This document shows positions 1,504 through 55,512 of a stretch of 64,000 nt of DNA, one piece after another; within the stretch, counting starts at the first letter, position 1; the number at the start of each line of letters is the position of its first letter. Source of the DNA: an uncultured Thermodesulfobacteriota bacterium (GTDB lineage Bacteria; Desulfobacterota; JBBIRW01). The notes beneath the pieces were generated by a model that saw only the letters and a list, made by a program, of their open reading frames with translations, did not search any database and had not been told where the DNA came from. The translations under genes and the position numbers were made by a program. The DNA lies in contig CAZDGM010000002.1 in NCBI GenBank assembly GCA_964505185.1, positions 72,597 through 136,596 on the forward strand, given 5' to 3'.

Positions 1504-1508
1504 CTCTT

Positions 1509-2294: not shown

Positions 2295-2308
2295 CCTTTC
2301 CTCCCTTG

Positions 2309-3613: not shown

Positions 3614-3635
3614 TTCCTCCTCCCTTTAAAATTAA

Positions 3636-4796: not shown

Positions 4797-4836
4797 TTAA
4801 GATCCTCCTTTAATTTTTATCCCTTCATTGGCAGAA

Positions 4837-4852
4837 TGCAAATTCTATTCCA
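4837..4852 (-). promoter_or_regulatory. Candidate sigma-54 (-24/-12) promoter of the BCR-like operon
   Basis: Minus-strand sequence TGGAAT-AGAAT-TTGCAT has GG-N10-GC spacing matching TGGCAC-N5-TTGCW. It lies about 40 nt upstream of the start at 4796, and an NtrC-family activator gene is adjacent. Confidence 0.45.
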
Positions 4853-4961
4853 GAATGGAAAATTGTTTTATTTAATAAAATCTTGAAGAATATTGTATCC
4901 TATTAATTTTTCAAAATTTTCCGGATCCTTATCGATTCATAATCTCATGTCAAAGAATAGG

Positions 4962-4998
4962 TGATAAATTTTTATCATTTGAGGGATAAAAATTTTTC
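4962..4998. promoter_or_regulatory. Tandem imperfect palindromes, candidate enhancer (UAS) sites
   Basis: TGATAAA-TT-TTTATCA (4962-4977, a perfect 7-2-7 inverted repeat) and GATAAAAATTTTTC (4985-4998). Their centres are about 22 bp apart, roughly 110-150 bp upstream of the sigma-54 candidate. Confidence 0.3.
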
Positions 4999-5003
4999 GC
5001 TCC

Positions 5004-6380: not shown

Positions 6381-6395
6381 AATTAACTCTGTTAA

Positions 6396-38932: not shown

Positions 38933-40090
38933 TCAGACTATTATCCTTTTTTCTTTAAGTCGGGTGATTTCATTGCCACTGAACCCGAGTTCCATCATTA
39001 TTGATTCCGTATCGGAGTAAGGACTGCAGGGTTTAAGTTGATCACCCTCCTCATGGGGAATAAATCTCAATGGAATCCCCAGAAATTTCTTCCCATCTGA
39101 TTCCTCTATTATTTCAGCAAAATTTGCTTTTATAAATTTGTATGCCTCATCCATAGAAAAAACAGGCTCCATACATGCGTCCACATCACGGAATATCTCC
39201 TCCCATTCTTTCCTCGTTTTTGTTGAGATAATCCGAGAAATTATAGTTCTTAACCCTTGCTGATCCTCGCAGTACTGGGCATCAATCAGATCCTCCCTCC
39301 CTACTGCCCTGCAAAAGTTATCCCAGAATTTCCTCTCAAGGGATCCCATAGATATAAATTTACCATCTTTTGTTTTGTATATATTGTAACATGCAAGCCC
39401 ACCTGACAGTGGAATCCCTTTCTCTGGAGACCATCCATAATTCAGAAATGCATAATAATAATTTTGCATGAGGGAGAGGATGGAGCCATACATGGAGAGA
39501 TCTATATACCTTCCCTTTCCGGATATCCTGGATTCCAGAAGAGATGCAAGAATAGCTATTGATGCCCAGAATCCTGCCGCAAGGTCAGCCATCTGGACCG
39601 GAGGAGGCGTTTCTTTATCGAAGGTTGAAAGGAAGAGATGGAGCATTCCAGAAAGTGCCATATAGTTTATATCATGGTCACCCCTCATAGAGTAATTTCC
39701 ACTCTGTCCGTATCCTGTAATGGAGCAGTAGACAAGGGCTAGATTCAAATCCTTCACCCTCTCATAATCAAACCCAAGTCTCTCCATAACACCTGGCCTG
39801 AATTGTTCAACAAGCACAGAGGCAGTTTTTATAAGCCTTATAAATATCTCCTTACCTTCCCTTTCCTTAAGATTGAGCCCGATGCTCCTCTTCCCCCTGT
39901 TCAGCGCACTGTAGAGTGTATCATCACCGTCATAAACCGGATTTATAAACTGCGAGATCTCTATCCCACCTATTTGCTCAACCCTTATAACATCAGCTCC
40001 AAGGTCTGAAAGAATCATTGTACAGAATGGACCAGGAATATATCTGGTGAGATCTATTACCTTTATTCCATGAAGAAGCTTTTCCTTCAT
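38933..40090 (-). CDS. Family III CoA-transferase (CaiB/BaiF/Frc family)
   Basis: 385 aa; N-terminal GIKVIDLTRYIPGPFCTMILSDLGADVIRVE is the CoA_transf_3 signature. Confidence 0.8.
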   Translation of the reverse strand: MKEKLLHGIKVIDLTRYIPGPFCTMILSDLGADVIRVEQIGGIEISQFINPVYDGDDTLYSALNRGKRSIGLNLKEREGKEIFIRLIKTASVLVEQFRPGVMERLGFDYERVKDLNLALVYCSITGYGQSGNYSMRGDHDINYMALSGMLHLFLSTFDKETPPPVQMADLAAGFWASIAILASLLESRISGKGRYIDLSMYGSILSLMQNYYYAFLNYGWSPEKGIPLSGGLACYNIYKTKDGKFISMGSLERKFWDNFCRAVGREDLIDAQYCEDQQGLRTIISRIISTKTRKEWEEIFRDVDACMEPVFSMDEAYKFIKANFAEIIEESDGKKFLGIPLRFIPHEEGDQLKPCSPYSDTESIMMELGFSGNEITRLKEKRIIV

Positions 40091-40094
40091 GAAC

Positions 40095-40430
40095 TCACCC
40101 CTTCATTGCAGAGATTATTTTTAATGCAAGAAGGATATCGCCCTCCACAATCAATTTCCCATTGAAAAATGCACTTTTATAGGAAAGCTCCCCTTTTAAG
40201 ATCTTCTCAAAATCTCCTGAATCAATACTGATTGTTACATCAGCATCATCAGCCTTATTCTTATATATTGCTGTATCCTCTCCATCTATTGAGATGGTAA
40301 ATGAATCCGCATTTTTACCTGTGATCATTATCTGGATCACTGCCTTGAGCTCTTTTATCAAATGGCCCTTTTCTTTGAATCTTTCCATCATCATTTTCTT
40401 TAATATATTGTATGTATTCCCTTCATCCAT
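40095..40430 (-). CDS. SCP2 sterol-carrier-like domain protein
   Basis: 111 aa ending ...FFNGKLIVEGDILLALKI, typical of SCP-2. Confidence 0.6.
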   Translation of the reverse strand: MDEGNTYNILKKMMMERFKEKGHLIKELKAVIQIMITGKNADSFTISIDGEDTAIYKNKADDADVTISIDSGDFEKILKGELSYKSAFFNGKLIVEGDILLALKIISAMKG

Positions 40431-40549
40431 TATCCATTCCTTAAAAATTTTAAATTATCCCCGATATTACACCATAATATCTCGTGATTAGCAATTGAAA
40501 AAAATCGGCAAAATGATAAAATTAATTAAAATAAGCCTGTTTTATTTTA

Positions 40550-42436
40550 ATGGCGAAGTTATTGCCCTTTCCTATAAAGAGCATAAGGTTCAAGGTCCTC
40601 TCTTCTGTAGTAATTGTGCTTACCATCGTAATGGGAATTATATTTTCCATACAGTACTACCAGTATCGCAAGGAACTTATAGAAAGGCTTGGCCTTTCAT
40701 CCACACCACTTAGCGATGTTATAAAGGGAAGTCTCAAGCATGCAATGCAAACAAGAAATATGGAAGCCCTGGAGCAGATTATAAGAAATGTGAGTATGCA
40801 AAAAGGGGTTGAAAAGGTATTTATATTTGACAAAAAAGGCGTGATAAAGGTCTCTCCGGATGAGCAGGACATAGGGAAAAGGGTCGAGATTAATGATAGA
40901 ACCTGCCAGATATGCCACAAGTATGAGCCGGATAATAGAAACAAGACTGTTATCTTTACGGTCTCAAAAAATAAAAGGATATTCAGAAATGTAAATCCTA
41001 TCCTAAATGAACAGGAGTGTCATCGCTGCCACAATCCTCTTGACAAAATAAATGGCGTTCTTATCAGTGATTTCTCAATGGCTGAGGTGGACAGGGAACT
41101 TTCCAGCAAAATGAGGCAGATGATTATCTCCCTCATAATAACACTGACATTAACGATAATAACAATTACCTTTCTGATGAACAGAATGGTAATTAACAAG
41201 CTTGAGAAAGTTGCCTTAGCAACAAAATTACTCAGTAAAGGGAATCTTGAATTCAAGGTTGAGATGAAGAGTGAAGATGAGATAGGGGAACTTGCGGATT
41301 CATTCAATCAGATGGTTGAAAATCTTAAGAAGATGAAAGAACTCAGAGAGAGAAAAGAGTTACTCGAAAATGTTTTATCAAATATAAAGGAATCAATAAT
41401 TATAATTGACCATGAAGGAAGGATTATTTCGATCAGCAAGACCGCTGAATCGATGTTTGGCTACAGATCAGATAACATACTTGGATCCCATTATACCGAA
41501 CTTGGCGAGGAAAGGATGAGGGCATGGGCAAAGGCCTCAAGAAAAATAACAGTTTGCGAAGAGGTCCAGATGAAAGCGGGGGAAAGATTCTTTCCCGTAT
41601 CCTTTACCCTTACACCACTAATGGATGAGCAAAACGAAATAGTGGGATTTATTGAAATAACCAGGGATCTCACGGAAGAAAAAACAAAAGAACTCCTTCA
41701 GAAACAGTTGATACACTCTGAGAGACTTGCTGCTATGGGAAGACTTGCCGCAGGTGTTGCTCATGAATTGAATAATCCACTTGGTAATGCACTTTTATAT
41801 GCGAGAATCCTTCTTGAAGAAATCACACCTGAAAGTCCATATTACAGAAATGCCCAGAAGATTGTTGATAATATCATGAGATGTAAAAAGATAGTTTCAA
41901 ACCTCCTTGATTACACACGTCAATCCGAAGTTCATATGGAATTGAACGATATAAACAGGATTATCAAAAAGGCTGTGAAGATGCTCTCCAATGAGCTTTC
42001 CATAAATAATATTGAATGTGAGCTTGTCCTTTCGGAAGATCTTCCTCCGGTGCTTTGTGATAGAAACCAGATTCAGCAGGTCTTCATAAATCTGATACAG
42101 AATGCAATTGAAGCCGTTGGAAATGATGGAAAAATAAAGATCTTTTCGGCAACCTCCGACAATGATAGTAAAACATTGCTATTTGGTGTATGGGACAATG
42201 GGCCAGGGATCGATCCCGATATTATTATAAGAATTTTTGAGCCTTTCTATACAACAAAAGAAAAGGGGACAGGACTTGGTCTATCCATATGTGAAGGAAT
42301 AATCAAGAGGCATGGAGGAAAGATACGGGTTGAAAGTCCTCCCTCTAAAAACCCGTTCAAGAATGGGATTATTCCTTCAGAAGGAACACTTTTTGTTGTG
42401 GAGCTTCCTTATGTTAAACATAATATGGTTTGCTAA
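40550..42436 (+). CDS. Sensor histidine kinase with periplasmic di-heme c-type sensor domain, HAMP, PAS, HisKA, HATPase_c
   Basis: 628 aa; TM1 around residues 16-36 and TM2 around 190-212. The periplasmic loop holds CQICH (40904-40918) and CHRCH (41018-41032). HAMP (LSKGNLEFKVEMKSEDEIGELADSFNQM), PAS, H-box AHELNNPLGN and C-terminal ATPase motifs follow. Confidence 0.8.
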   Translation: MAKLLPFPIKSIRFKVLSSVVIVLTIVMGIIFSIQYYQYRKELIERLGLSSTPLSDVIKGSLKHAMQTRNMEALEQIIRNVSMQKGVEKVFIFDKKGVIKVSPDEQDIGKRVEINDRTCQICHKYEPDNRNKTVIFTVSKNKRIFRNVNPILNEQECHRCHNPLDKINGVLISDFSMAEVDRELSSKMRQMIISLIITLTLTIITITFLMNRMVINKLEKVALATKLLSKGNLEFKVEMKSEDEIGELADSFNQMVENLKKMKELRERKELLENVLSNIKESIIIIDHEGRIISISKTAESMFGYRSDNILGSHYTELGEERMRAWAKASRKITVCEEVQMKAGERFFPVSFTLTPLMDEQNEIVGFIEITRDLTEEKTKELLQKQLIHSERLAAMGRLAAGVAHELNNPLGNALLYARILLEEITPESPYYRNAQKIVDNIMRCKKIVSNLLDYTRQSEVHMELNDINRIIKKAVKMLSNELSINNIECELVLSEDLPPVLCDRNQIQQVFINLIQNAIEAVGNDGKIKIFSATSDNDSKTLLFGVWDNGPGIDPDIIIRIFEPFYTTKEKGTGLGLSICEGIIKRHGGKIRVESPPSKNPFKNGIIPSEGTLFVVELPYVKHNMVC

Positions 42437-42467
42437 ATATGGATTAGAATAAACAAGGAGGGAAAGA

Positions 42468-43850
42468 TTGTCGGAGATCTTTCATGGAAGAAAAATTCTA
42501 ATCGTTGATGATGAAGAGGATACACTCGAGGCATGTTCCCATATACTGGGAAAACTTGGGATTCACGTGCAGACCGCAAATAATGCCACTCAAGCACTAC
42601 GACTGATTCGCGAAAATTCCTTTGACATTGTAATTGCTGACATAAAAATGCCCGGAATGGATGGTATTGAGCTTTTGAAGAATCTTAAAAAAATCGATCC
42701 ATTAACAAGGGTCATAATGATAACTGGATATGCGACCATTGAAAGCGCAGTTGAATCAATGAAGGCAGGTGCATTTGATTATATTTCCAAACCATTTACA
42801 ACAGATCAGCTAAGGGCTGCTGTAAAAAGGGCCCTAGAAAATCTGGATCTTATTACTGAGAACAGGGAGTTAAGGGAGAGACTCAGAGGGGTGGAAAGAG
42901 AGCTAACTTTTATTGCTTTCAGTGAATCCATGAAAAGGATTCAGGAGCTTATAAAAAAGGTTGCAGAAACAGATTCAACAGTTCTCATACTTGGAGAAAC
43001 GGGAACAGGGAAAGATCTCGTTGCAAAGCAGATCCATCGAATGAGCAACCGGGCAAATGAACCATTCATTACTGTCAACTGTGCAGCAATCCCTGCAACA
43101 CTTCTTGAAAGTGAGCTGTTCGGACATGAGAAGGGAGCTTTTACAGGCGCGAACAGAAAGAAAAAGGGGCTTTTTGAGCTTGCTGATGGCGGAACCATCT
43201 TTCTCGATGAGATAGGGGATCTCAGTATTGACCTTCAGGGAAAACTTCTCAGGGCTATTGAGGAAAAGGCCATCATGCCCCTTGGAAGCGAAAGAAAAAT
43301 ACATATTGATGTGAGGATAATTGCAGCAACAAACAGAAACCTTATTGATGCAATCAGGCAATCAAAATTCAGGGAAGATCTCTACTATCGACTCAATGTT
43401 TTTCCTATATATCTGCCTCCATTGAGAGAAAGAAGGGATGATATAATACCCCTGGCCTCACATTTCCTTGAGAGATATAACCGCAAGCATGGCAAGCAGA
43501 TATATGGGTTTAAGAAGGAAGCCCAGGAGGCTCTACTCTCTTATAGCTGGCCAGGCAATGTAAGGGAGCTTGAGAATTTTATCGAAAGGGCGGTTATACT
43601 TGAAGAATCTGAAACAATAGGTCTCGATTCATTGGGTGGTGATCTTATAAGATATATATCTTCCTCAAATCCCCCGTATCCACTTTCATATAGGGAAAGG
43701 GATATGGAGGAATGGCCTTCCCTCGATCATCTTGAAAAAACCTATATATTGGAGGTCCTCAAGGCAACAAAATGGAACAGGAAGAAGGCTTCAAGGATCC
43801 TTGGTGTAAGCACTGTAACCCTCTGGAGAAAGATCAGGGATAAAAAATAA
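42468..43850 (+). CDS. Sigma-54-dependent response regulator (NtrC family)
   Basis: 460 aa with REC (ILIVDDEED...IADIKMPGMDG), AAA+ (GETGTGKD, GAFTGA) and a C-terminal HTH. Confidence 0.9.
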   Translation: MSEIFHGRKILIVDDEEDTLEACSHILGKLGIHVQTANNATQALRLIRENSFDIVIADIKMPGMDGIELLKNLKKIDPLTRVIMITGYATIESAVESMKAGAFDYISKPFTTDQLRAAVKRALENLDLITENRELRERLRGVERELTFIAFSESMKRIQELIKKVAETDSTVLILGETGTGKDLVAKQIHRMSNRANEPFITVNCAAIPATLLESELFGHEKGAFTGANRKKKGLFELADGGTIFLDEIGDLSIDLQGKLLRAIEEKAIMPLGSERKIHIDVRIIAATNRNLIDAIRQSKFREDLYYRLNVFPIYLPPLRERRDDIIPLASHFLERYNRKHGKQIYGFKKEAQEALLSYSWPGNVRELENFIERAVILEESETIGLDSLGGDLIRYISSSNPPYPLSYRERDMEEWPSLDHLEKTYILEVLKATKWNRKKASRILGVSTVTLWRKIRDKK

Positions 43851-43991
43851 TTTCATTTTGTAATCAATCCTTCTTAATGATCCCTTTCAAAATGTAATCT
43901 AAAGGGGATCAATCATTGAACCCATAAAGGCCCGCATAAAATTTTCCCTAATATTTCAACAGAATAACATTTCAATTCTCATAAAAACCCA

Positions 43992-44007
43992 TGGCATGAA
44001 GATTGCG
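43992..44007 (+). promoter_or_regulatory. Sigma-54 promoter (-24/-12) for the cytochrome/molybdoenzyme operon
   Basis: TGGCAT-GAAGA-TTGCG has exact GG-N10-GC spacing and is a near-consensus match to TGGCAC-N5-TTGCA. It lies about 30-45 nt upstream of the first operon gene and right after an NtrC-family activator gene. Confidence 0.55.
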
Positions 44008-44037
44008 ATTCTTTCTGGTAAAACCCCTTTTTAATGG

Positions 44038-44415
44038 ATGCTTGTAAATATGAAAGTATTTGGAAGAAGGATAATGATAGTTGAGGATGTAGCGGAAAGA
44101 AGGGAATTAATCTGCAGATTCTTTACTTCCCACGGCTATGAGGTATACCCCACAGATAACGTTGTAAAAGCATTGATGGCATTCCTGGAGGAACCTTTTG
44201 ACATCATTGTTATCAAGGGAGATCTTCCGCTTCTCTCTGGTCCGGAGGCTGCCTTAATTATGAGAAAACTCCATCCAATGGCAAAAATTTTTCTAACGAT
44301 GGATGAGAATTCCGAAAAAGGTCTCATTGTTAAAAAGGAGGAAATCGAATACTTTCCATATGTCCCTGAACCCGTGGACATGAATTCTCTATCAAGCATT
44401 CTTGAGGAAATATAG
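44038..44415 (+). CDS. Receiver-domain-like protein, probable pseudo-receiver
   Basis: 125 aa with a CheY-like fold pattern (RIMIVEDV...FDIIVIKGDLPLLSG). A Lys sits at the position expected for the phospho-acceptor Asp. The start may instead be the ATG at 44050. Confidence 0.55.
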   Translation: MLVNMKVFGRRIMIVEDVAERRELICRFFTSHGYEVYPTDNVVKALMAFLEEPFDIIVIKGDLPLLSGPEAALIMRKLHPMAKIFLTMDENSEKGLIVKKEEIEYFPYVPEPVDMNSLSSILEEI

Positions 44416-44437
44416 GGGAAAAGAAAAGGAGAAATCT

Positions 44438-45571
44438 ATGAAGAAAGGAAAAATGTTAGCAATGGCAATTATTCTTGCATCATTATATACTTCGTCATCT
44501 CATGCCGGTAATAATTCATCAACTATTCCTGAATTCACAAATAGTTTTGAATGCGGAAAATGCCATATCGATGTTTATAGAAACTGGACTGTTTCCATGC
44601 ATGCACTATCTTTACAGAATCCTATCTTCAGGCTCGCTTATCAGGAAGCCTATACAAAAACATCGGGAAAAGCAAAATTCCTGTGCCTTGGGTGCCATTC
44701 ACCAACAGTTTCTATAACCGGTGATTTTGAACTGGTGAAAGAGATAAGCAGAGAAGGAGTGACATGTGATTTCTGCCATTCAATAAAGAATTATATAGGT
44801 AAAAAGAAGAGATATATCGTCGAGCCAGGGCCTGTCAAAAAGGCTCCCGTGAGAAGATCGTCTTCTGTATCTCATAAAGTTGAGTTTTCTCCGCTTCACA
44901 GTTCGTCAGAAATATGTGCGGGATGTCATGATGGAAAAAATCTAAAAGGCCTCCCTGTTAGAACTACATATACTGAATGGCTTAAATCCAGATATTCTAA
45001 AGACGGAATAACATGTCAGCACTGCCACATGAAGCGAACAATAGTTAAGTACAGAACTGCTTCAGATAGTAGATCTGCTTCAAAGGCTGTAAGAAGTCAT
45101 TATTTCCTAAGAACAATTGATGATATCAAGAAAGCTGCAATTGTCGAGATAAAAAACATAGAAAGGAAAGACAATAAGATGATTGTTTCAATTTCAATCG
45201 CAAACATCGGGGCCGGTCATTTCATTCCAACAGGAAGCCCTTCAAAAAAACTCATCCTGAGGGTCTCAGCAAAAAATCAGATGAATTATTATACCATCCA
45301 GGAAAAAACTTTTGGCATGAAGGTAATCGATGAAAAGGGAATAGAGCTCCATACGGAACCCGAGATTATGTTGAGAGGGTCAGCCATAAAAATTGATGAG
45401 AGAATACCTCCACAAGGAAAAGTTATTGAACTATTGGAATTCGATTTTCCAAAGGATCAATATGCTGTTGTCACTGCTCAGCTTATATATCTGTACAGAC
45501 CACTGATTCTGGATGAAACTTCAATGAGGGTGGAAATCGCATCTGACCAAAAAATTTCTCCAGCAAGGTAA
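44438..45571 (+). CDS. Periplasmic pentaheme c-type cytochrome
   Basis: An AAGGAG RBS precedes the ATG at 44438. Signal peptide MKKGKMLAMAIILASLYTSSSHA. Five CxxCH motifs (CGKCH, CLGCH, CDFCH, CAGCH, CQHCH). The C-terminal ~150 aa has no hemes and looks beta-rich. Confidence 0.75.
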   Translation: MKKGKMLAMAIILASLYTSSSHAGNNSSTIPEFTNSFECGKCHIDVYRNWTVSMHALSLQNPIFRLAYQEAYTKTSGKAKFLCLGCHSPTVSITGDFELVKEISREGVTCDFCHSIKNYIGKKKRYIVEPGPVKKAPVRRSSSVSHKVEFSPLHSSSEICAGCHDGKNLKGLPVRTTYTEWLKSRYSKDGITCQHCHMKRTIVKYRTASDSRSASKAVRSHYFLRTIDDIKKAAIVEIKNIERKDNKMIVSISIANIGAGHFIPTGSPSKKLILRVSAKNQMNYYTIQEKTFGMKVIDEKGIELHTEPEIMLRGSAIKIDERIPPQGKVIELLEFDFPKDQYAVVTAQLIYLYRPLILDETSMRVEIASDQKISPAR

Positions 45572-45575
45572 CCAG

Positions 45576-46160
45576 ATGAAAAAAGCAAAAAGATATGCAA
45601 TGCTCATCGATCTCAGAAGATGTATTGGCTGCCACAGCTGCTCAGTTTCATGCAAGGCAGAAAATCAGGTTCCATTGGGCGTATGGAGAACATGGGTAAA
45701 ACAGGTTGAAAAGGGAATTTATCCAAATGTAATCAGAATATTTCTTCCACTTCTATGTAATAATTGTGAACGTCCTGTTTGCAAAACTGTATGTCCTGTA
45801 AAGGCAACATATCAAAGGGAAGATGGCATTGTTATGATAGATCCCCATCGATGTATTGGGTGTAAATATTGTATGGCCGCATGCCCATATAATGTCAGAT
45901 ATGTTGATCCTATTAAGAAAATTGTCCAAAAGTGCACATGGTGCTATAGAAGGGTGGATGCTGGTGATCTTCCTGCATGCGTAAAAACATGCGTTGGAGG
46001 CGCGAGAATATTTGGTGACATAAACGATCCTGATAGCGAAATTTTCAGGCTTATCTCGATAAATTCGGTTCAGGTAATAAAACCCGAGAAGGGAACCTCA
46101 CCGATGGTCTTCTACATAGATCTCGATATTACCGCAGTAGAGGCGAGGGAGAATGTATGA
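45576..46160 (+). CDS. 4x[4Fe-4S] electron-transfer subunit of a molybdoenzyme complex (PsrB/NrfC/DmsB family)
   Basis: 194 aa with four Cys clusters: CIGCHSCSVSC, CNNCERPVCKTVCP, CIGCKYCMAACP and CTWCY...C. Confidence 0.85.
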   Translation: MKKAKRYAMLIDLRRCIGCHSCSVSCKAENQVPLGVWRTWVKQVEKGIYPNVIRIFLPLLCNNCERPVCKTVCPVKATYQREDGIVMIDPHRCIGCKYCMAACPYNVRYVDPIKKIVQKCTWCYRRVDAGDLPACVKTCVGGARIFGDINDPDSEIFRLISINSVQVIKPEKGTSPMVFYIDLDITAVEARENV

Positions 46161-47059
46161 ATGAAGCAGTAAGAGTTGTATACAATATTCATCATGAAAT
46201 TCCACTTGGAGTATTGATAGCAAACTATTTTTATTTTACCGGGTTGAGTGCCGGATCCTTTATTCTCTCAACCCTTGCATACGTATTCGGCATAAATAAA
46301 TACAAGCCTATAGCAAAAACAAGTGTAATACTTGCAACTTTACTTCTTATTCTTGCACCAATAAATCTCCTTATTGACCTTGAACAGCCATACAGGTTCT
46401 GGACACTCTTTTATTACATAAATCCGACATCGGCAATATCATGGGGCTCATTTTTACTAACCCTTTATCCATTGAATTGTATCATTTATGGATTTTTCAT
46501 GTTCAAGGGAAATGAAAAGATGACAAAATTATTTGGTATCCTGGGAATACCCCTTGCTATCTCTGTTCACGGATATACAGGATTTATACTTGCCCTTGCC
46601 AGAGCAAGAGATCTCTGGCATACACCCCTGATGCCAGTTCTTTTTCTCGTTTCAGCTATGGTATCAGGAATAGCGCTTACTATCCTCGTTATCTATGTTA
46701 AGGACAGATTCTTTAGCCCATTAATGAAAGCCAATGAAGAGTTAATCATAGATCTTGGAAAGATACTCGCTTTTTCAATAATCCTTGATCTTTCTCTTGT
46801 GTTTGCAGACATTATTGTTATGTTTAATTCAAATCCAGAGGCATTACAAATTGTTGATAGGGTTCTTTTCGGTAAATTTAAAAATCTATTTCTCGGCATC
46901 GAAATTACTCTTGGATCACTGATACCACTTCTCATACTTCTTTCACCATTAAGAAAAAATATAACGCTTGTAATAATTTCTTCACTTCTCGTTATGATTG
47001 GAATATTTGCCATGAGATATGTTGTTGTTGTTGGAGGACAGATCATTCCACAGATATAA
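46157..47059 (+). CDS. NrfD/PsrC-family integral membrane quinone-interacting subunit
   Basis: 300 aa with about 8 predicted TM helices. Its start overlaps the FeS gene stop (ATGA). Confidence 0.75.
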   Translation: MNEAVRVVYNIHHEIPLGVLIANYFYFTGLSAGSFILSTLAYVFGINKYKPIAKTSVILATLLLILAPINLLIDLEQPYRFWTLFYYINPTSAISWGSFLLTLYPLNCIIYGFFMFKGNEKMTKLFGILGIPLAISVHGYTGFILALARARDLWHTPLMPVLFLVSAMVSGIALTILVIYVKDRFFSPLMKANEELIIDLGKILAFSIILDLSLVFADIIVMFNSNPEALQIVDRVLFGKFKNLFLGIEITLGSLIPLLILLSPLRKNITLVIISSLLVMIGIFAMRYVVVVGGQIIPQI

Positions 47060-47071
47060 AGGAGGTAAAAT

Positions 47072-48019
47072 ATGAATGGATCAAAAAATATTTTTTATGA
47101 CTTTCAACTTAAAAAAACAAATCTCGGAACATTTCGAGGAAACCCCATTTCCATAGTTATTTTAATTGTCTGCATCAGTTTGAGTATTTTAACAGCTTTA
47201 AATTATAAATTCATACTTTCATCAGCTATTATAGTCATTGGTATACTTTCTCTTCTAAGTATCAAAATAGCAGCACACTGGGAAAGGGCTGTTGTTTTAA
47301 GGCTCGGCAGATTTATTGGATTCAGGGGGCCAGGTATCTTCTTCCTCATCCCCTTCATCGATACCATTCCATACTGGATTGATCTGAGGATTATAGCAAC
47401 ACCCTTTAAAGCAGAACAAACTTTAACCAAGGATAATGTTCCTGTTGATGTTGATGCCGTATGTTTCTGGAAGGTTGTGAATCCTGAAAAAGCAGCGCTC
47501 GAGGTTGCAGACTACCATGAAGTTATAAGCTGGGCTTCTCAAACTGCATTGAGGGATGTCATAGGTAAAAGTCTTCTTTCGGAAATGCTTGTTGGGAGGG
47601 AAATGATCGATCTACAGCTAAAAGAATTGATAAAGGAGAGAACAGAAATGTGGGGAATTTATGTTGATTCTGTTGAAATAAGGGATGTGAATATCCCAGT
47701 ACCTCTTCAGGATGCCATGTCCATACAGGCGCAGGCTGAAAGGGAAAGGCAGGCAAGACTTATCCTTGGTGAATCTGAAACACAGATTGCTCAGAAATTC
47801 GCAGAGGCTGCAAAGGCTTATATAAATAATCCCACAGCGTTGCATCTCAGGGCAATGAACATGCTTTACGAAGGTTTCAAAGATAAAGGAACACTTGTTA
47901 TCGTTCCAAGCACAGCCGTTGAAACAATGGGATTGGGTGCGATCCTTGGCGCCTCATCACTTACGAAAATATCGATACCATCTTCGGACACAGAACCTGT
48001 CTCAAAGGGTTCTCAGTAA
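47072..48019 (+). CDS. SPFH/band-7 (stomatin/prohibitin-like) membrane protein
   Basis: 315 aa with an N-terminal TM followed by an SPFH domain (ERAVVLRLGRFIGFRGPGIFFLIPFID...) and a coiled-coil region. Confidence 0.8.
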   Translation: MNGSKNIFYDFQLKKTNLGTFRGNPISIVILIVCISLSILTALNYKFILSSAIIVIGILSLLSIKIAAHWERAVVLRLGRFIGFRGPGIFFLIPFIDTIPYWIDLRIIATPFKAEQTLTKDNVPVDVDAVCFWKVVNPEKAALEVADYHEVISWASQTALRDVIGKSLLSEMLVGREMIDLQLKELIKERTEMWGIYVDSVEIRDVNIPVPLQDAMSIQAQAERERQARLILGESETQIAQKFAEAAKAYINNPTALHLRAMNMLYEGFKDKGTLVIVPSTAVETMGLGAILGASSLTKISIPSSDTEPVSKGSQ

Positions 48020-48037
48020 TAAAGGGAGTGTAATAAC

Positions 48038-50236
48038 ATGGCTGATATTACTCGAAGGGATTTCATCAAAGCTGGTTTGATATTCCTCTCCACATCAGCC
48101 CTAATTCCTCCCGTCTTTGCTCGTGCAACTGATAGTAAAAATTTAGACACTAACAAAGACAGTGGGACCTTGTTTGACACAGCAATACCGACAACCTGCC
48201 TTATTTGCGGAGCAGGCTGCGGAATCATAGCATATAAAAGGCATGGGAGGGTGGTAAAAATAGATGGAAACCCCTTGCACCCCACGAATAGAGGAAAGAT
48301 ATGTGGTAAGGGACATGCGGGGCTTAATATACTTTATGATCCTGAAAGGGTTCTTTCCCCGCTCATGAGAAAGGGACCAAGGGGATCTGGTAACTGGAGG
48401 GTCTGTACATGGAGCGAAATAATGGATGGGATATGTGAAAGGATTCAATCAGCGCTCAAAAATGGTGATGAGATTCTCTTTCTTCAAGGATCTGACAGAA
48501 TGGGAAACCTTGTGGAAGATATATCCAGGAAGCTCGGTAGAATTAAATTCCTCGCATCGAAAGAACAAAGGGGTATTAACAAAAGGATGGCATATCTGAC
48601 GACTTTTGATACAGATATTGTTATACCTGATATTGAGCAGAGTACCTTTATCTTAAACTTTGGCGCAAATCCATTTGAGGCAAATTATATGACTCCTCTG
48701 GCACAAAGAATTATCAATGCAAAAATAGAAAGAGGTGCAAGATTAATAACAATTGATCCGAGACTCTCAAACACAGCGGCGAAAAGTGATCTCTGGATTC
48801 CCATAAAACCCGGCACTGATGGAATTGTTTCTCTCTCAATGTCATTTATGATCATGAATAATGATCTTCATGACCGTGAATTTATAAGGAATTGCACTAA
48901 TTGCGATGAAAAGCATTTGCTGGCACATCTTTCCAAATACACACCAGAATTAGCTGAAAGGGTTTCCGGTGTTGATAGAAATCTAATCAGAAAAATTGCA
49001 TTTCAATTTGCAACTTCTGAATCACCAATTGCTATTTCAGGAAGGGGAGTTTATCAGCATCTAAATGGTATCGAAGCGGAGAGATCAGTCCTTCTTCTCA
49101 ACATAATCTGTGGAAGAATAAATAAAAAAGGAGGATTGTTTATTTTTGAAAGGAGCAGGAATAATAGAGAAACGATTTTTAGTAAAAAAGGTTCTTCCGG
49201 AAATGAATCATTTCTCGATATTATAGAGGATGCCAGAAGAAAAGGAAAAAAATATCCTGTTATTATAATCCATCACTCAAATCCAGTTTATTCCCAAAAT
49301 GAAATAAATTTAATTTCGGAAACACTCAGGGATGAGAAACTCTTCCCTTTCATCATTGTATCCGACACCCATATAACGGAAACAGCCATGTTTGCCGATG
49401 TAGTATTGCCCGATACATCATATCTTGAATGCTGGGGCATAACGGAGCGTCCGGTATTTGGTAAAGATCCATATATCTCATTATCACAGCCAGTTTCTGA
49501 TCCTCCTGGAGAGGCTATTCCATTTGAGGATGTTTTCATTCAGATTGCAAACAGGGTTGGTATCAGCACAGATTTTAAAGACTCAAGGGAATTTATCAAT
49601 AGAAAAATAGGGATGCTACTTAGAAATGAAAAGGCAAAGTCTGAATTGTATGAAAATGGATTTCTTTACTTAGCGAATAGGGAAAACCTGCTGAGAGTTT
49701 CAACTGTTTCGAAAAAAATAGAGATCCATTCAGAGAAAATGAAGGAGTTTGGTCTTGAACCATTTCCTTCATTTAAGTCACCTTCTGAAAAAAAACCGGG
49801 ATGGTTTTATCTTATTACATATAAGATAAACACACATTCACACTCAAGAACACAAAACTGTAAATGGCTATCTGAGATATTTCATACAAATCCGCTGCTT
49901 ATTAATCCATTGACCGCTGAAAAACTCGGAATAAAAGAGGGAGATACGGTTAAATTGAAAACAGAATTGGGCTCTGTATCGGTAAAAGTACAGTTTACAG
50001 AGGGCATCCATCCTGATGCCCTTGCTATTGCAATGCATGCAGGTCATTGGGCTTATGGAAGGGTCGCAAGGGCAATACCCTTCAAAAGCAACGACCCGGA
50101 TACCATGTTGATTTGGTGGACAGCAAAAGGAAATGGGATAAATCCCAATAGAATACTGCATTCAACGCATCCCTCAGGTGGTGAACATCCTTTCCTCGAT
50201 GCGCTTGTTTACCTGGATGTATCCAGCGGAGGATAA
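48038..50236 (+). CDS. Tat-exported molybdopterin (Mo/W-bisPGD) oxidoreductase catalytic subunit, Psr/Phs-size class
   Basis: 732 aa with twin-arginine signal MADITRRDFIKAG...VFA, the FS0 cluster motif CLICGAGCG...C(x27) and molybdopterin oxidoreductase and molydop_binding regions. Confidence 0.85.
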   Translation: MADITRRDFIKAGLIFLSTSALIPPVFARATDSKNLDTNKDSGTLFDTAIPTTCLICGAGCGIIAYKRHGRVVKIDGNPLHPTNRGKICGKGHAGLNILYDPERVLSPLMRKGPRGSGNWRVCTWSEIMDGICERIQSALKNGDEILFLQGSDRMGNLVEDISRKLGRIKFLASKEQRGINKRMAYLTTFDTDIVIPDIEQSTFILNFGANPFEANYMTPLAQRIINAKIERGARLITIDPRLSNTAAKSDLWIPIKPGTDGIVSLSMSFMIMNNDLHDREFIRNCTNCDEKHLLAHLSKYTPELAERVSGVDRNLIRKIAFQFATSESPIAISGRGVYQHLNGIEAERSVLLLNIICGRINKKGGLFIFERSRNNRETIFSKKGSSGNESFLDIIEDARRKGKKYPVIIIHHSNPVYSQNEINLISETLRDEKLFPFIIVSDTHITETAMFADVVLPDTSYLECWGITERPVFGKDPYISLSQPVSDPPGEAIPFEDVFIQIANRVGISTDFKDSREFINRKIGMLLRNEKAKSELYENGFLYLANRENLLRVSTVSKKIEIHSEKMKEFGLEPFPSFKSPSEKKPGWFYLITYKINTHSHSRTQNCKWLSEIFHTNPLLINPLTAEKLGIKEGDTVKLKTELGSVSVKVQFTEGIHPDALAIAMHAGHWAYGRVARAIPFKSNDPDTMLIWWTAKGNGINPNRILHSTHPSGGEHPFLDALVYLDVSSGG

Positions 50237-50237
50237 A

Positions 50238-50753
50238 ATGAGAAGGATCTTAGCCATACCCATCGAGATACTCCTTATGATATTTGTAGCCGGAATAGTA
50301 GTAGGATTTTACCCTTTTCTTGGGTTGATAAAATATTCAACATCCTCTTCCTCACAGTGTATGAAATGCCACAAAAGCGGATACCTCAGCATCCCCTCTC
50401 AATCAAATGCCCATTCTAATTCGGCAGATTGCATTTCATGTCATGCAACGAAAAATTCCATTATACCACTTGATTTTCCGAAGGCCTTTTCCGCTGACAA
50501 AAATATTGTTAGCAAAAATTGCACGAAATGCCACAGAAATTCTCCAGCTCTTATTGAGAAAAAAGAGAATGGAATACTTCTGAAAATACCTCATAAAAAA
50601 CATATCGAGTTCAGTGATGGACAATGCACACTTTGCCACCGCAGGATTGCACATAAATGGTCAGAAAAGCAAACCCATCGTCCAGATATGGGAGACTGTT
50701 TTTCCTGTCATTCGCGAAATGAAGACTGCACAACCTGCCATCCCAATGGATAA
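50238..50753 (+). CDS. Membrane-anchored hexaheme c-type cytochrome
   Basis: GGAGG lies 7 nt upstream of the ATG at 50238 (1 nt after the upstream stop). N-terminal TM helix and six CxxCH motifs in about 171 aa (CMKCH, CISCH, CTKCH, CTLCH, CFSCH, CTTCH). Confidence 0.75.
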   Translation: MRRILAIPIEILLMIFVAGIVVGFYPFLGLIKYSTSSSSQCMKCHKSGYLSIPSQSNAHSNSADCISCHATKNSIIPLDFPKAFSADKNIVSKNCTKCHRNSPALIEKKENGILLKIPHKKHIEFSDGQCTLCHRRIAHKWSEKQTHRPDMGDCFSCHSRNEDCTTCHPNG

Positions 50754-50757
50754 TAGA

Positions 50758-51861
50758 TTAAGCTCCTCTTATCTTAAATCGCTGATCAAGCTTTTTTAAC
50801 TTCTCCACTATACCTCCATATTCCAGCTCGCTGAATGGAAGCATTGATGGTCCTGAAAAGCCCTGTCTTCTCATCTCGATCGCTTTTTCAGCAACCTTTA
50901 TTCTTATATAATCCCAGAAAGGCTGATCGAAACAATCAGCAGGCTCGGAGAGCTTACCATTATGAACACAGAATGCAAGACAACTTACCACAGGCGGACC
51001 ATCAAAATATGAAACAGAGCTTTCTATTTTAACAGGCATAAGAGGTCCTGTATGACTCCCCCTCATAAATCCCGCAACATAATGACCTATTGCAAAGGGT
51101 GAAAGGACTTCACCTGTTGCTGGAAAAATACCTTGTGTCCTTACAATCATAACAGGGTCATCCTTGCCAACATATTTACCAGCAATGTTCCTCAGCCTCG
51201 TTGTGCTGACTGCAACAGCTGGCTCCTTTCCATCTTTTGTATATATCGCTTCAATAACATATCTCTCATTATCCCTTATAAGGGCAGCAATATCATAGAG
51301 CTCTTCAGGTGCATAGAGTTCTATTATTCTATCACCTTCCGTATGTTCAACATCCATTATTACGAATTTATAGCCATCTGTTTTCGGATTTAGAATCAAT
51401 CCAGAGCTAAACATGGGATCTGCAAATCCAAGATACAGTGGAAGATTGTATGCGCCCGGATCAGTTTTGTCCGCAGCAAACAATAGAAAAGGCTCGCTCG
51501 GTCTTTCCACAAATTCCATTTCGGCAACTGCCGGCCCCATCCCTTTTATATTCCCTGAAAAGGCATCCTTCAGTAAATCCTGACCCGCACCATAAAGTCC
51601 TTCCTCTTTCGCAGTCTCTGTTGCCTCACGAAATGCAAACCATGCGAGTTCATGAACTCTTTCACTACCTGTGCCATTGGTATGGGAAAAAAGGATGCAG
51701 ATATCATCACCTGTAAAGGTAACAAAATAGTCTATGATTATCCCGCGCGATGCTGATTGTATGTAATTTTCCACCCTCTTTAAAACCTTCTTGCTCGGTT
51801 TTATATGACCTCCTATACTTCCTATATCAGCCTTGATAACACTTAATGTTGTCTTCATATG
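50758..51861 (-). CDS. Bifunctional fructose-1,6-bisphosphate aldolase/phosphatase (archaeal-type class V FBPase)
   Basis: MKTTLSVIKADIGSIGGH..., the conserved N-terminus of FBP aldolase/phosphatase, about 367 aa. Start taken at an internal Met of the tracked ORF. Confidence 0.8.
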   Translation of the reverse strand, partial: HMKTTLSVIKADIGSIGGHIKPSKKVLKRVENYIQSASRGIIIDYFVTFTGDDICILFSHTNGTGSERVHELAWFAFREATETAKEEGLYGAGQDLLKDAFSGNIKGMGPAVAEMEFVERPSEPFLLFAADKTDPGAYNLPLYLGFADPMFSSGLILNPKTDGYKFVIMDVEHTEGDRIIELYAPEELYDIAALIRDNERYVIEAIYTKDGKEPAVAVSTTRLRNIAGKYVGKDDPVMIVRTQGIFPATGEVLSPFAIGHYVAGFMRGSHTGPLMPVKIESSVSYFDGPPVVSCLAFCVHNGKLSEPADCFDQPFWDYIRIKVAEKAIEMRRQGFSGPSMLPFSELEYGGIVEKLKKLDQRFKIRGA

Positions 51862-52966: not shown

Positions 52967-53038
52967 GCGGGAGTAGTTCAGGGGTAGAACACCACCTTGC
53001 CAAGGTGGGAGTCGCGGGTTCAAATCCCGTCTCCCGCT
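52967..53038 (+). tRNA. tRNA-Gly (anticodon GCC)
   Basis: Manual cloverleaf: acceptor GCGGGAG/CTCCCGC, D-arm GTTC-AGGGGTA-GAAC, anticodon arm CCACC-TTGCCAA-GGTGG, T-arm GCGGG-TTCAAAT-CCCGT, discriminator T. CCA is not encoded. Confidence 0.85.
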
Positions 53039-53063
53039 CTATTTTTTTACCCCTCCAGATCAT

Positions 53064-53135
53064 GGCGGCATAGCCAAGCGGAAAGGCAGAGGTCTGCAAA
53101 ACCTCCATTCCCCGGTTCGAATCCGGGTGCCGCCT
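53064..53135 (+). tRNA. tRNA-Cys (anticodon GCA)
   Basis: Acceptor GGCGGCA/TGCCGCC, anticodon loop CTGCAAA, T-loop TTCGAAT, discriminator T. It lies 25 nt after tRNA-Gly. Confidence 0.85.
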
Positions 53136-53267: not shown

Positions 53268-54884
53268 ATGGAGGGGTATATGGCAAAACTGCAATTTCGC
53301 ATAAAGCATACAAAGGATAGCAGGAAATCATCAATAGCATTCATAGGAACACTGATATTAATCATCATAATTTTATTTAACAAGGGTAGCCTTGCTGAAG
53401 AAAGCCTCCTTTTCCCTCCGCTCTCCATCTCTCTCAAGGAATGCATCATATATGCGATGGAAAACAATTTTGATCTCAAAGCCTTCTCACTTGACCCTAA
53501 AATTGCAAGGCATGAGATAAGAAAATCCCTGGGTATCTTCGATCCCCTATTTTTTTCAGATTTATCAACAAATAGGTCGGTGCTTCCCAATGCATTTTCA
53601 CTTTCCGGTGTTATGGAGACAATTGATGAGTCAAGAAAACTTAATTCAGGATTTAGAAAAAGATTTATAACGGGAACAGATGCAGAGCTCAGTATTTCAA
53701 TTAACAGACTTGAAACGAATTCACGTATTCAAATTTTCTCAAGCCAATATACTGATAACATCAGTTTTATCTTAAAACAGAACCTTCTTCGTAATGCAGG
53801 CCTCGAAATAAATAAGATTCCGGAGCTTCTTGCACGAAATAACTACCAGATTTCAAAATTCGAATTTGAAAGAAAGCTCATGGATCTGATGATCGAGATT
53901 CAGAAAACATACTGGGAGCTTGTAAAAAGTATAAAATCACTGCAGGTTAATAAGGAATCACTTAAACTTGCTGAGGATCTTCTACATCAAATTGAAATCC
54001 AGGTGAGGGTTGGAACACTACCTCCTATTGAGCTTATTCAGGCGGAAGCAGAAGTAGCATCAAGAAAGGAGGCTATTATTTCAGCAGAAGCACAGGTTAA
54101 AAATCTTGAAGACCAATTAAAAAGACTGATAAATATTGATGATCCCATATTCTGGGAGAGGACGATAATTCCCTCTGATGAACCATCTATTACGGAATTC
54201 AGGGTAGCTGAAGATGAAAGCATAGCTATCGCATTACAGAGGAGACCTGAGTATTTAACTGCAAAGATGGATGCGGAATCGAAGGGACTTATTCTCAAGC
54301 TATCAAAAAACAGTAGATATCCCCTTGTTGATCTCAAAGGCACATTCTCCCTTAATGGTCTTTCTGGAAAGATAAACCCGGGTCTTGTTACAATATCCGG
54401 GCCCTTTACATCCCCATTTGAAGGGGATCTTTATGACTCCATCGATACCCTCTCTTCAGGAAATTACTATAGCTGGCAGATTGGGATCTACTTTGAATAT
54501 CCCATTGGAAATAGACAGGCAGATGCAGCATACAGGCAAAGTATCCTTGAAAGGGAAAAAGCGCTCATAAATATAAAAAATTCAGAACAGAAAATATTTG
54601 TTGAGGTCAGGCAGACCATAAGGGATATAAATACAAATATGGAAAGGATCGAGGCTGCAAGAAAATCAAGGATACTTGCTGAGGAGAGATTAAGGGCTGA
54701 AGAGAAGAAATTTGCCGTTGGTCTTTCAACATCATACAATATTTTTCAGATGCAGAGGGATCTTATAGCGGCCAAGACTGAGGAAATAAAAGCAATAATT
54801 GATTATAATCTTTCTATATCAAGATGGAAGAGGGCAACAGGGTTAATCATTGACGAATTAAATTCCTTAAATTTTCTCAATTAA
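53268..54884 (+). CDS. TolC-family outer-membrane efflux protein
   Basis: 538 aa with a signal peptide and two OEP repeats with coiled-coil heptads. Confidence 0.8.
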   Translation: MEGYMAKLQFRIKHTKDSRKSSIAFIGTLILIIIILFNKGSLAEESLLFPPLSISLKECIIYAMENNFDLKAFSLDPKIARHEIRKSLGIFDPLFFSDLSTNRSVLPNAFSLSGVMETIDESRKLNSGFRKRFITGTDAELSISINRLETNSRIQIFSSQYTDNISFILKQNLLRNAGLEINKIPELLARNNYQISKFEFERKLMDLMIEIQKTYWELVKSIKSLQVNKESLKLAEDLLHQIEIQVRVGTLPPIELIQAEAEVASRKEAIISAEAQVKNLEDQLKRLINIDDPIFWERTIIPSDEPSITEFRVAEDESIAIALQRRPEYLTAKMDAESKGLILKLSKNSRYPLVDLKGTFSLNGLSGKINPGLVTISGPFTSPFEGDLYDSIDTLSSGNYYSWQIGIYFEYPIGNRQADAAYRQSILEREKALINIKNSEQKIFVEVRQTIRDINTNMERIEAARKSRILAEERLRAEEKKFAVGLSTSYNIFQMQRDLIAAKTEEIKAIIDYNLSISRWKRATGLIIDELNSLNFLN

Positions 54885-55340
54885 AAACTTCCAGTAATCA
54901 TTCAGACGAAAGCATCTCCAGCGGCCATTCATTCTTTTACATAATTGGGGGAGTGTATGCTTTGCGGAAACCTCATCATCTGTAATTACTGCAAGTATCA
55001 TTCTACTCTCCAACCCCTTAATCTCATCTATAACTTTCTTTTCAAGAAGTGGGCTAAAACTCCCCCTGAGATCCAGCGTTTTGTCCCCTCCCCTGAGTGC
55101 TGTTTTCTCTATCATTATCCTCCATAATCCCCATCCTTCATTTATTACCTCATATTTTAGACCCCTTCCTTCGCACAGACGGGGGAGGGTTTTATTTACG
55201 GATACCTGGTCATCAGTGAGAATCTCGAGAATCTCCCAATCCTTCATTATTTTAAGATATCTCTTCACTTCCAGTTCCACTTCAGGGCTATATTTTCCCA
55301 TCATATTCAGGAACTTATCGGATTTTTCAAAATCATCCAT
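54867..55340 (-). CDS. Hypothetical protein with internal tandem repeat
   Basis: 157 aa with two copies of a ~45-aa unit (ILTDDQVSVNKTLPRLC...WGLWRIMIEK and VITDDEVSAKHTLPQLC...YWKFLIEKI). No family recognised. Confidence 0.4.
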   Translation of the reverse strand: MDDFEKSDKFLNMMGKYSPEVELEVKRYLKIMKDWEILEILTDDQVSVNKTLPRLCEGRGLKYEVINEGWGLWRIMIEKTALRGGDKTLDLRGSFSPLLEKKVIDEIKGLESRMILAVITDDEVSAKHTLPQLCKRMNGRWRCFRLNDYWKFLIEKI

Positions 55341-55427: not shown

Positions 55428-55512
55428 GCCTGGGTGGCGGAATAGGCAGACGCAAGGGACTTAAAATCCCTTGGAGGTTCCCTCCGTGCGGGTTCGATTC
55501 CCGCCCCAGGCA
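55428..55512 (+). tRNA. tRNA-Leu (anticodon TAA)
   Basis: 85 nt. Acceptor GCCTGGG/CCCAGGC, anticodon loop CTTAAAA, long variable arm GGAGG-TTC-CCTCC, T-loop TTCGATT, discriminator A. Confidence 0.85.

Follow-up and report, generated by a model that had tools for sequence, protein, structure and literature searches.

A histidine kinase with a predicted two-heme sCache_heme sensor domain beside a sigma-54-dependent respiratory operon in an uncultured Thermodesulfobacteriota bacterium

A 64,000-nucleotide stretch of DNA from an uncultured Thermodesulfobacteriota bacterium (GenBank assembly GCA_964505185.1, contig CAZDGM010000002.1, positions 72,597 to 136,596 of the forward strand; hereafter the window) encodes a sensor histidine kinase whose periplasmic loop very probably, from its sequence motifs, carries two covalently bound c-type hemes. 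The gene is followed by one for an NtrC-type sigma-54-dependent activator, by a sigma-54 promoter, and by a respiratory operon built around a molybdopterin oxidoreductase. Taking together the sequence anatomy of the locus, the fold and homology of the sensor domain, the conservation of its motifs, the promoter and the conserved synteny, we consider it reasonably probable that this is a two-heme sCache_heme kinase for which periplasmic redox poise is the most likely signal, and that it acts through the activator to switch the operon on. Coordinates of the features are collected in Table 1.

Two heme c motifs in a periplasmic loop

A hydropathy scan of the kinase found exactly two strongly hydrophobic segments (transmembrane segments TM1 and TM2), and the N-terminus is positively charged, with 4 Lys/Arg among residues 1-15. 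Because the ATP-using kinase core must be cytoplasmic, HAMP comes right after TM2, and the N-terminus is rich in Lys and Arg, the loop between TM1 and TM2 is placed in the periplasm. The initial annotation, made from the sequence alone, had put a CXXCH-bearing loop there and had described HAMP, PAS and a complete kinase core after it. The topology agrees with this, the Pfam domains were found, and the kinase motifs are all intact: the H-box HELNNP with the phospho-acceptor His405, NLIQNA (residue 514, the N box), DNGPG (549, the G1 box) and GTGLG (573, the G2 box). The two heme c motifs, CQICH (motif 1) and CHRCH (motif 2), were also recovered at exactly the positions first given for them, 40904-40918 and 41018-41032. 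The loop has four Cys residues in total, all of them within these motifs. Given how frequent Cys and His are in this protein, chance would put 0.0007 CXXCH motifs in the loop, and the probability of finding two or more is about 2e-7.

Is the second motif a peculiarity of this one protein? To collect relatives, a profile was run exhaustively against 1.84 billion cluster representatives, in place of a word-indexed protein search, which returned 5-7 fragmentary matches only and missed a 98%-identical protein present in the collection. At E<=1e-3 the profile search yielded 1589 relatives (50%-identity clusters), and at E<=1e-10 it yielded 773. Motif conservation was counted in 153 relatives using a hidden Markov model (HMM) alignment, domain content was recorded in 82 full-length relatives, and residue invariance was read from a 56-sequence alignment spanning 25-61% identity. 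Of the 153 relatives, 144 carry the two motifs in register, the exceptions being mostly truncated fragments, so the kinase represents a large di-heme branch and not a rarity. The spacing between motif 1 and motif 2 is 38 residues in 102 of the 138 two-motif relatives. All six defining residues (C119, C122, H123, C157, C160 and H161) are invariant in the 56 aligned sequences, as is G169; M66, R146, N153 and D174 are nearly so. Among the 82 full-length relatives HAMP is present in 80 and a kinase ATPase domain in 66, with GGDEF in 8 and HD in 2.

Relationship to the sCache_heme family

The AlphaFold2 model made for residues 36-190 has a high confidence (predicted local distance difference test, pLDDT, 89.6) and contains two helices, the N-terminal one long, and a sheet of five strands. 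Foldseek matched it in the PDB to WalK, GSU0935 (3b42, 20% identity), CitA, KinD and DcuS, which indicates a single Cache (PDC) fold. In the model motif 1 lies on a short helix between beta2 and beta3, the segment that in ordinary Cache domains frames the small-molecule pocket.

Comparison with solved structures gave only noise when the single sequence was used (3b47 at E 0.71), whereas the 56-sequence profile matched 3b47 (GSU0582, E 1.3e-10) and 3b42 (GSU0935, E 1.5e-10) over the whole domain. In the profile alignment CHRCH falls residue for residue on the CQSCH of GSU0582 and GSU0935, in an insertion before the last beta-strand that is homologous to the crystallographic heme site, and Met66 falls, by residue count, on Met60 of GSU0935. 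CQICH lies opposite a Cys-free stretch of both proteins. The heme of GSU0935 is bound by Cys140/Cys143 and has His144 and Met60 as axial ligands (PMC8396549). The corresponding prediction for heme 2 of the kinase, with His161 as proximal and Met66 as distal ligand, is therefore well founded; Met occupies position 66 in 144 of the 153 relatives, and His64 is conserved in only 63. No further conserved His or Met that could be the sixth ligand of heme 1 was found among the 153 relatives, so one of the two predicted hemes would be without a conserved protein sixth ligand.

The Pfam family of these Geobacter domains, PF21563, matches 59 of the 82 relatives at E<=1e-3 (best 4.7e-10). PF11845 (Tll0287-like) has no match to the kinase and matches only 3 of the 82. 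By sequence comparison, then, the sensor domain is a divergent branch of the PF21563/sCache_heme family and not a non-member.

Domains of this kind are known and common, and the two-heme form has been noticed but is unstudied. The sCache_heme family was defined in a February 2026 preprint, which reports 5,000-20,000 sequences and finds the family in over half the genomes of some phyla, among them Desulfobacterota (PMC12889525). The initial annotation had called covalent-heme sensor domains rare; that family size, and the 1589 clusters in the present branch alone, contradict it. A phrase search of the preprint's text found no mention of a second heme or a second CXXCH. The two-motif variant has been noted before in Geobacter and Anaeromyxobacter: GSU0599, GSU0591, Adeh_2011 and Adeh_3383 are described as having sensor domains like that of GSU0935 in which an additional motif for heme binding is present, and GSU0599 is listed among two-component system proteins (PMC3831638; PMC8396549). 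GSU0591 and GSU0599 are also listed as signal transducers with two c-heme motifs (PMC8396549). In the literature that mentions these four proteins we found no experimental characterization of them.

Activator and sigma-54 promoter

The initial annotation had paired the kinase with a sigma-54 activator. The gene at 42468-43850, which starts 32 nucleotides after the kinase gene, bears this out in both its domains and its motifs: a phospho-acceptor Asp58 (in DIKMP), a Walker A motif GETGTGK at residue 176 and GAFTGA at residue 223. A 187-nucleotide gap follows the activator gene and contains the consensus sigma-54 promoter TGGCATGAAGATTGC, 32 nucleotides upstream of the first ATG of the operon. 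Sigma-54 promoters have a -24 GG and a -12 GC element (consensus TGGCAC-N5-TTGC). The strict pattern TGGYAY-N5-YTGC is matched in the interval from activator gene to operon at 5 of 5 loci with a downstream operon; its background frequency over 758 kb is 0.021 per kb. Equivalent promoters are at the same place in four of the related cassettes described below (L013, L014, L017 and L019).

About 100 nucleotides upstream of the window's promoter is an inverted repeat, TGATCCCTTT-N14-AAGGGGATCA, whose arms are conserved in a near-identical locus (L001, see below). As no T-run follows it, a terminator is unlikely, and it is a plausible candidate for the activator's binding site. In the other cassettes palindromes of the type TGACA-N5-TGTCA, for example CTGACAATTTGTCAG and GACATAATGTCA, lie upstream of the sigma-54 promoters (L013 13285-13299, L014 13204-13260, L017 12235-12275, L019 3518-3560) and are likely, judging by sequence and position, to be a shared activator binding site of those cassettes. 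The window's counterpart differs from them.

The kinase and activator genes may themselves be read from a sigma-70-type promoter, the top consensus match (10/12) in a promoter scan of 40000-51200, placed 28 nucleotides 5' of the kinase ATG. Since that scan was not enriched over shuffled sequences, the match is weak evidence. An Rfam scan of the window gave only three tRNA genes (52967-53135 and 55428-55512, plus strand) and no riboswitch before the operon.

The neighboring respiratory operon

Kinase, activator and operon lie in a ten-gene plus-strand unit that is flanked on both sides by minus-strand housekeeping genes. The initial annotation had described the operon as rich in multiheme cytochromes. 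Two such genes are indeed present, with 5 and 6 CXXCH motifs, but the operon primarily encodes a Psr/Phs-like molybdopterin oxidoreductase. The catalytic subunit has an RRDFIK twin-arginine signal and a C-x2-C-x3-C motif, and among solved structures its best match is Thermus PsrA (2vpw, E 8.6e-61). No equivalog cut-off was reached by this subunit (PhsA 318 bits against 694, QrcB 200 against 440, ArrA 167 against 1600) or by the iron-sulfur (Fe-S) subunit (TtrB 248 bits against 416; DsrO 190 bits, also below its cut-off). Because the scores stay below every threshold at the PhsA, TtrA, ArrA and QrcB level, we assigned no substrate to the enzyme. Identity with Qrc or alternative complex III was considered and rejected, as the molybdenum (Mo) subunit keeps the Fe4S4 motif and the signal for twin-arginine translocation (Tat) and scores higher against PhsA/PsrA.

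The open reading frame (ORF) of the pentaheme cytochrome opens with a TTG at 44402, and the probable ATG start given in Table 1 was taken from L001. The protein is 39% identical to a cytochrome of the Acidobacteriota cassette L014. The first gene of the operon encodes a receiver-only protein in which, on alignment with true receivers, Lys replaces the phospho-acceptor Asp and Glu replaces the conserved Lys before Pro; in its counterpart in L013 (13564-13932) Ser replaces the phospho-acceptor Asp. These substitutions suggest a pseudo-receiver that two distant cassettes have in common. The SPFH/Band 7 gene (47072-48019), between the genes for the NrfD and molybdopterin subunits, is an unusual partner for such enzymes. 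Some 4 kb from the operon, on the minus strand, a gene for a protein with two TusA sulfurtransferase domains (54867-55340) gives a weak hint of sulfur metabolism.

Table 1. Features of the kinase locus and of the adjoining operon (window coordinates; aa, amino acid residues)
Feature	Position	Strand	Evidence
Candidate promoter (sigma-70 type) for kinase and regulator genes, TTGAAA-16-TAAAAT plus TG extension	40495..40522	+	
Sensor histidine kinase gene, 628 aa, ATG start	40550..42436	+	ORF, translation, Pfam domains
TM1 (~aa 14-36), uncleaved membrane anchor	40589..40657	+	Kyte-Doolittle maximum 2.75 (19-residue windows)
Periplasmic sCache_heme-type sensor domain (aa 37-189), 153 aa	40658..41116	+	
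Codon of Met66 (distal axial ligand predicted for heme 2; helix continuous with TM1)	40745..40747	+	
Heme c motif 1, CQICH (aa 119-123), additional site relative to mono-heme relatives	40904..40918	+	
Heme c motif 2, CHRCH (aa 157-161), canonical sCache_heme site	41018..41032	+	
TM2 (~aa 190-212)	41117..41185	+	Hydropathy up to 2.48, HAMP directly after
HAMP domain (aa 210-260)	41177..41329	+	PF00672, E 2.4e-11
Cytoplasmic PAS domain (aa 270-378)	41357..41683	+	PAS_9 E 1.2e-14; PAS_4 E 3.5e-12
Kinase core: HisKA (aa 396-458) and HATPase_c (aa 504-621)	41735..42412	+	Pfam, sequence motifs
NtrC-type sigma-54-dependent response regulator (REC, AAA+, HTH_8)	42468..43850	+	Sigma54_activat E 1.4e-73; Response_reg E 5e-34; HTH_8
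Inverted repeat, candidate activator binding site	43878..43911	.	Found by script
Sigma-54 promoter (-24 TGGCAT / -12 TTGC)	43992..44006	+	
Receiver-only protein, first gene of sigma-54 operon	44038..44415	+	Response_reg 36.9 bits
Periplasmic pentaheme c-type cytochrome	44438..45571	+	5 CXXCH, Sec-type signal, Cytochrome_C554 and ExtKL-like matches
Four-cluster Fe-S subunit (PsrB/TtrB/DsrO-like)	45576..46160	+	Fer4_11 E 5e-27
NrfD/PsrC-type integral membrane quinone-interacting subunit	46157..47059	+	PF03916, E 2.6e-50
SPFH/Band 7 membrane protein	47072..48019	+	PF01145, E 8.5e-33
Tat-exported molybdopterin oxidoreductase catalytic subunit (Psr/Phs-like)	48038..50236	+	Molybdop_Fe4S4, Molybdopterin, Molydop_binding
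Membrane-anchored NrfH/NapC-like cytochrome, 6 CXXCH	50178..50753	+	Cytochrom_NNT, Cytochrome_C7, N-terminal hydrophobic anchor

The cassette in other genomes

A protein of a Deltaproteobacteria metagenome-assembled genome (MAG) is 97-98% identical to the 628-residue kinase, and locus L001, of a Deltaproteobacteria MAG, is near-identical to the window's (97% identity). A single-protein scan of genome contigs returned only the near-identical MAG and kinase-core matches. The arrangement of kinase, activator, promoter and cytochrome-molybdoenzyme genes recurs in five distant metagenomic lineages. In L013 (FWWM01000606) a di-heme kinase and a sigma-54 activator are followed by one or more multiheme cytochromes, by molybdopterin, Fe-S and NrfD subunits, and by further cytochromes. 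L014 (an Acidobacteriota MAG), L017 and L019 (metagenomic contigs) have the same layout, and in L018 (also a metagenomic contig) the same set of genes is found, the operon here being upstream of the kinase. With the window's kinase, those of L013 and L014 share only 31-33% identity.

The initial annotation had suggested that the kinase controls the downstream operon. This suggestion is supported, and strengthened, by the sigma-54 promoter 32 nucleotides upstream of the operon and by the recurrence in five lineages; on this sequence context, the kinase and its partner regulator most likely switch on the neighboring respiratory operon.

In L009 (ENA NODE_51, the P0013 locus) a 630-residue di-heme relative is paired with a receiver-only protein, not with a sigma-54 activator, and its neighbors are Hdr/Flx-like redox genes, a 755-residue NapC/NirT-type multiheme cytochrome and a 1503-residue multi-domain flavo-Fe-S protein. 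P0157 (NCBI MEM7828255.1), from the 90%-identity cluster of the bacterial kinase P0006, was deposited as 'Candidatus Aenigmatarchaeota archaeon' on a 3956-nucleotide contig and is probably a binning contaminant in an archaeal MAG.

Proposed mechanism and alternatives

In the oxidized state the hemes of GSU0582 and GSU0935 are high-spin; on reduction they become low-spin through binding of Met60, and nitric oxide (NO) and carbon monoxide (CO) displace Met60 (PMC8396549). By analogy with these Geobacter homologues, reduction of the hemes or binding of a diatomic ligand would alter spin state and Met66 ligation in the kinase. The change at Met66 would displace the TM1-linked helix, and the signal would pass through TM2, HAMP and PAS to the kinase core. 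His405 would then phosphorylate Asp58 of the adjacent activator, which would open the promoter at 43992-44006, and the periplasmic Psr/Phs-like molybdoenzyme and the two multiheme cytochromes would be expressed. The signal would most likely be periplasmic redox poise, with electrons arriving from the cytochrome pool, and heme 1 could either let the electrons in or serve as a second sensing site with open coordination. Heme loading, ligand switching, the identity of the signal and the sign of regulation are the parts of this scheme that we infer.

A serious rival possibility, given how characterized relatives behave, but one that we think less likely than redox sensing, is that the kinase senses a gas or another small ligand (NO, CO, sulfide or polysulfide) and that binding at an open or labile heme site triggers it. 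Heme 1 would be the most likely site, because it has no conserved distal His or Met; alternatively Met66 could be displaced on heme 2, as Met60 is in GSU0582 and GSU0935. Moreover, a signalling-type sCache_heme protein of P. azotoformans behaves as an NO sensor, binding NO with high affinity and forming no stable oxy-complex (PMC12889525). A sulfur ligand is conceivable since the regulated enzyme is Psr/Phs-like and a TusA-like gene is nearby. Against a ligand, genes for NO detoxification or denitrification are absent from the regulated operons. In addition, at least two types of molybdoenzyme are linked to the same type of sensor, as the Mo subunits of the other five cassettes are 34-42% identical to one another and only 25-29% identical to that of the window. 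Because the same sensor type controls different molybdoenzymes, redox sensing is favored over a specific ligand, and a general redox cue fits better.

We regard it as improbable that the protein is an ordinary mono-heme sCache_heme kinase, in which heme would occupy motif 2 only and CQICH would instead bind a metal, form a disulfide or have a structural role. In favor of this, a crystallographic counterpart is known for motif 2 only, the model is least confident around motif 1, and motif 1 is absent from a few relatives (P0052, P0079). Yet motif 1 is in register in about 148 of the 153 relatives, its Cys, Cys and His are invariant in all 56 aligned sequences, it is an exact heme c signature in a periplasmic loop, and the literature counts such second motifs as heme-binding (PMC3831638; PMC8396549).

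It is very improbable that the kinase/regulator pair is unrelated to the adjoining operon and controls genes elsewhere: operon control is deduced from sequence context, and the inverted repeat in the window is unlike the TGACA-type palindromes of the other cassettes, but the promoter lies between activator and operon in all 5 downstream loci against its low background, the adjacency is kept in six lineages, and minus-strand genes bracket the ten-gene unit on both sides.

Several further observations count against the two-heme, redox-sensing reading, together with the NO binding of the P. azotoformans protein. The first concerns the hemes themselves, since for either motif of the di-heme subfamily heme loading is deduced from sequence. 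Among all window ORFs there are no cytochrome c maturation genes; the two adjacent multiheme cytochrome genes imply, indirectly, that the organism makes c-type cytochromes and has a maturation system. Motif 1 is without structural precedent, and the model was built without hemes, with confidence falling to about 70 around this motif. The second concerns kinship. The initial annotation had proposed an HMM comparison with known heme c sensor domains: the family profile does match 3b47 and 3b42 (E about 1e-10), but the kinase alone scores 20.4 bits against PF21563 (E 6e-4), under the 27-bit gathering score. The third concerns the output. The 25-29% identity of the window's Mo subunit to those of the other cassettes means that the regulated function is not strictly conserved, and this divergence suggests that the type of sensor and regulator is conserved while the type of enzyme differs. 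Other relatives have still other outputs or neighbors (GGDEF, a NarL-type regulator, Hdr-like genes).

Other features of the window

A second sigma-54 two-component pair is encoded on the minus strand (628-8003), with a GAF-PAS kinase at 6396-8003 and its activator at 5004-6380, upstream of four benzoyl-CoA reductase/2-hydroxyacyl-CoA dehydratase-type genes (two BcrAD_BadFG and two HGD-D). Also on the minus strand, trehalose-6-phosphate synthase (Glyco_transf_20, 59117-61164) is split into two ORFs, 59623-61164 covering profile positions 3-304 and 59117-59539 covering positions 337-471, next to trehalose phosphatase and TreT-like genes. A frameshift, a pseudogene or an error in sequencing may account for the split.

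Significance

Covalent-heme Cache sensors are among the few known bacterial means of reading redox state or gases outside the cytoplasm, and experimental work so far has dealt with mono-heme members only. The locus described here is a clean example of the predicted two-heme form whose output is defined, consisting of a single sigma-54 promoter and a single respiratory operon, and its wiring is shared by Desulfobacterota-like and Acidobacteriota genomes and by other metagenomic contigs. A tentative generalization is that di-heme sCache sensors could be a distinct, widespread class with the second heme in the canonical Cache ligand pocket, and that the HAMP-PAS-HisKA/sigma-54 form may be a dedicated regulator of quinone-linked molybdoenzyme-cytochrome modules across several phyla. 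If this is true, the second heme next to a Met-switching heme would be an electron-entry or second sensing site, and the kinase would be a periplasmic 'electron-pool gauge' for anaerobic respiration. Should the two hemes differ in potential or role, one could learn from the system how expression of alternative respiratory enzymes is matched to the periplasmic electron pool in anaerobes; the system would also provide work on uncultured sulfur or metal respirers with a defined regulator-promoter pair. As a new insight the recurrent regulatory cassette is modest, and it leaves current understanding intact.

Comparison with known systems

The closest structural counterparts are the sensor domains of GSU0582 and GSU0935 (PDB 3B47 and 3B42; PF21563). 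The kinase shares with them a homologous whole domain with the Cache/PAS-like fold, its placement between two transmembrane segments and ahead of HAMP, a CXXCH before the last strand and a distal Met on the N-terminal helix. It differs in having a second CXXCH 38 residues upstream where they have one heme, in being not a chemoreceptor, as they are, but a HisKA kinase to which a cytoplasmic PAS domain is added, and in overall sequence (only about 20% identity). GSU0599, GSU0591, Adeh_2011 and Adeh_3383 would, from their description, be of the same architecture. Work on the P. azotoformans Cache_heme-HAMP NO receptor describes a single heme, whereas the kinase has two motifs. Tll0287 (DUF3365) has Cys/His ligation, whereas Met is predicted here. 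The Cache (PDC) domains of WalK, CitA, DcuS and KinD contain no cofactor and recognize small ligands or partner proteins; in the kinase a heme motif is found in the pocket region.

On the output side, the pair resembles NtrBC, AtoSC and ZraSR in combining a HAMP/PAS/HisKA kinase, a REC-AAA+(GAFTGA)-HTH_8 activator and a -24/-12 promoter. Its input domain and regulated genes are different, and all NCBIfam equivalog scores are far below the cut-offs. The operon resembles PsrABC/PhsABC (Thermus PsrABC, 2VPW) in its Tat-exported molybdenum-bis(pyranopterin guanine dinucleotide) (Mo-bisPGD) subunit with an Fe4S4 domain, its four-cluster Fe-S subunit and its NrfD subunit. It departs from these systems in gene order (cytochrome, Fe-S, NrfD, SPFH, Mo, NrfH-like) and in the addition of two multiheme cytochromes and a pseudo-receiver.

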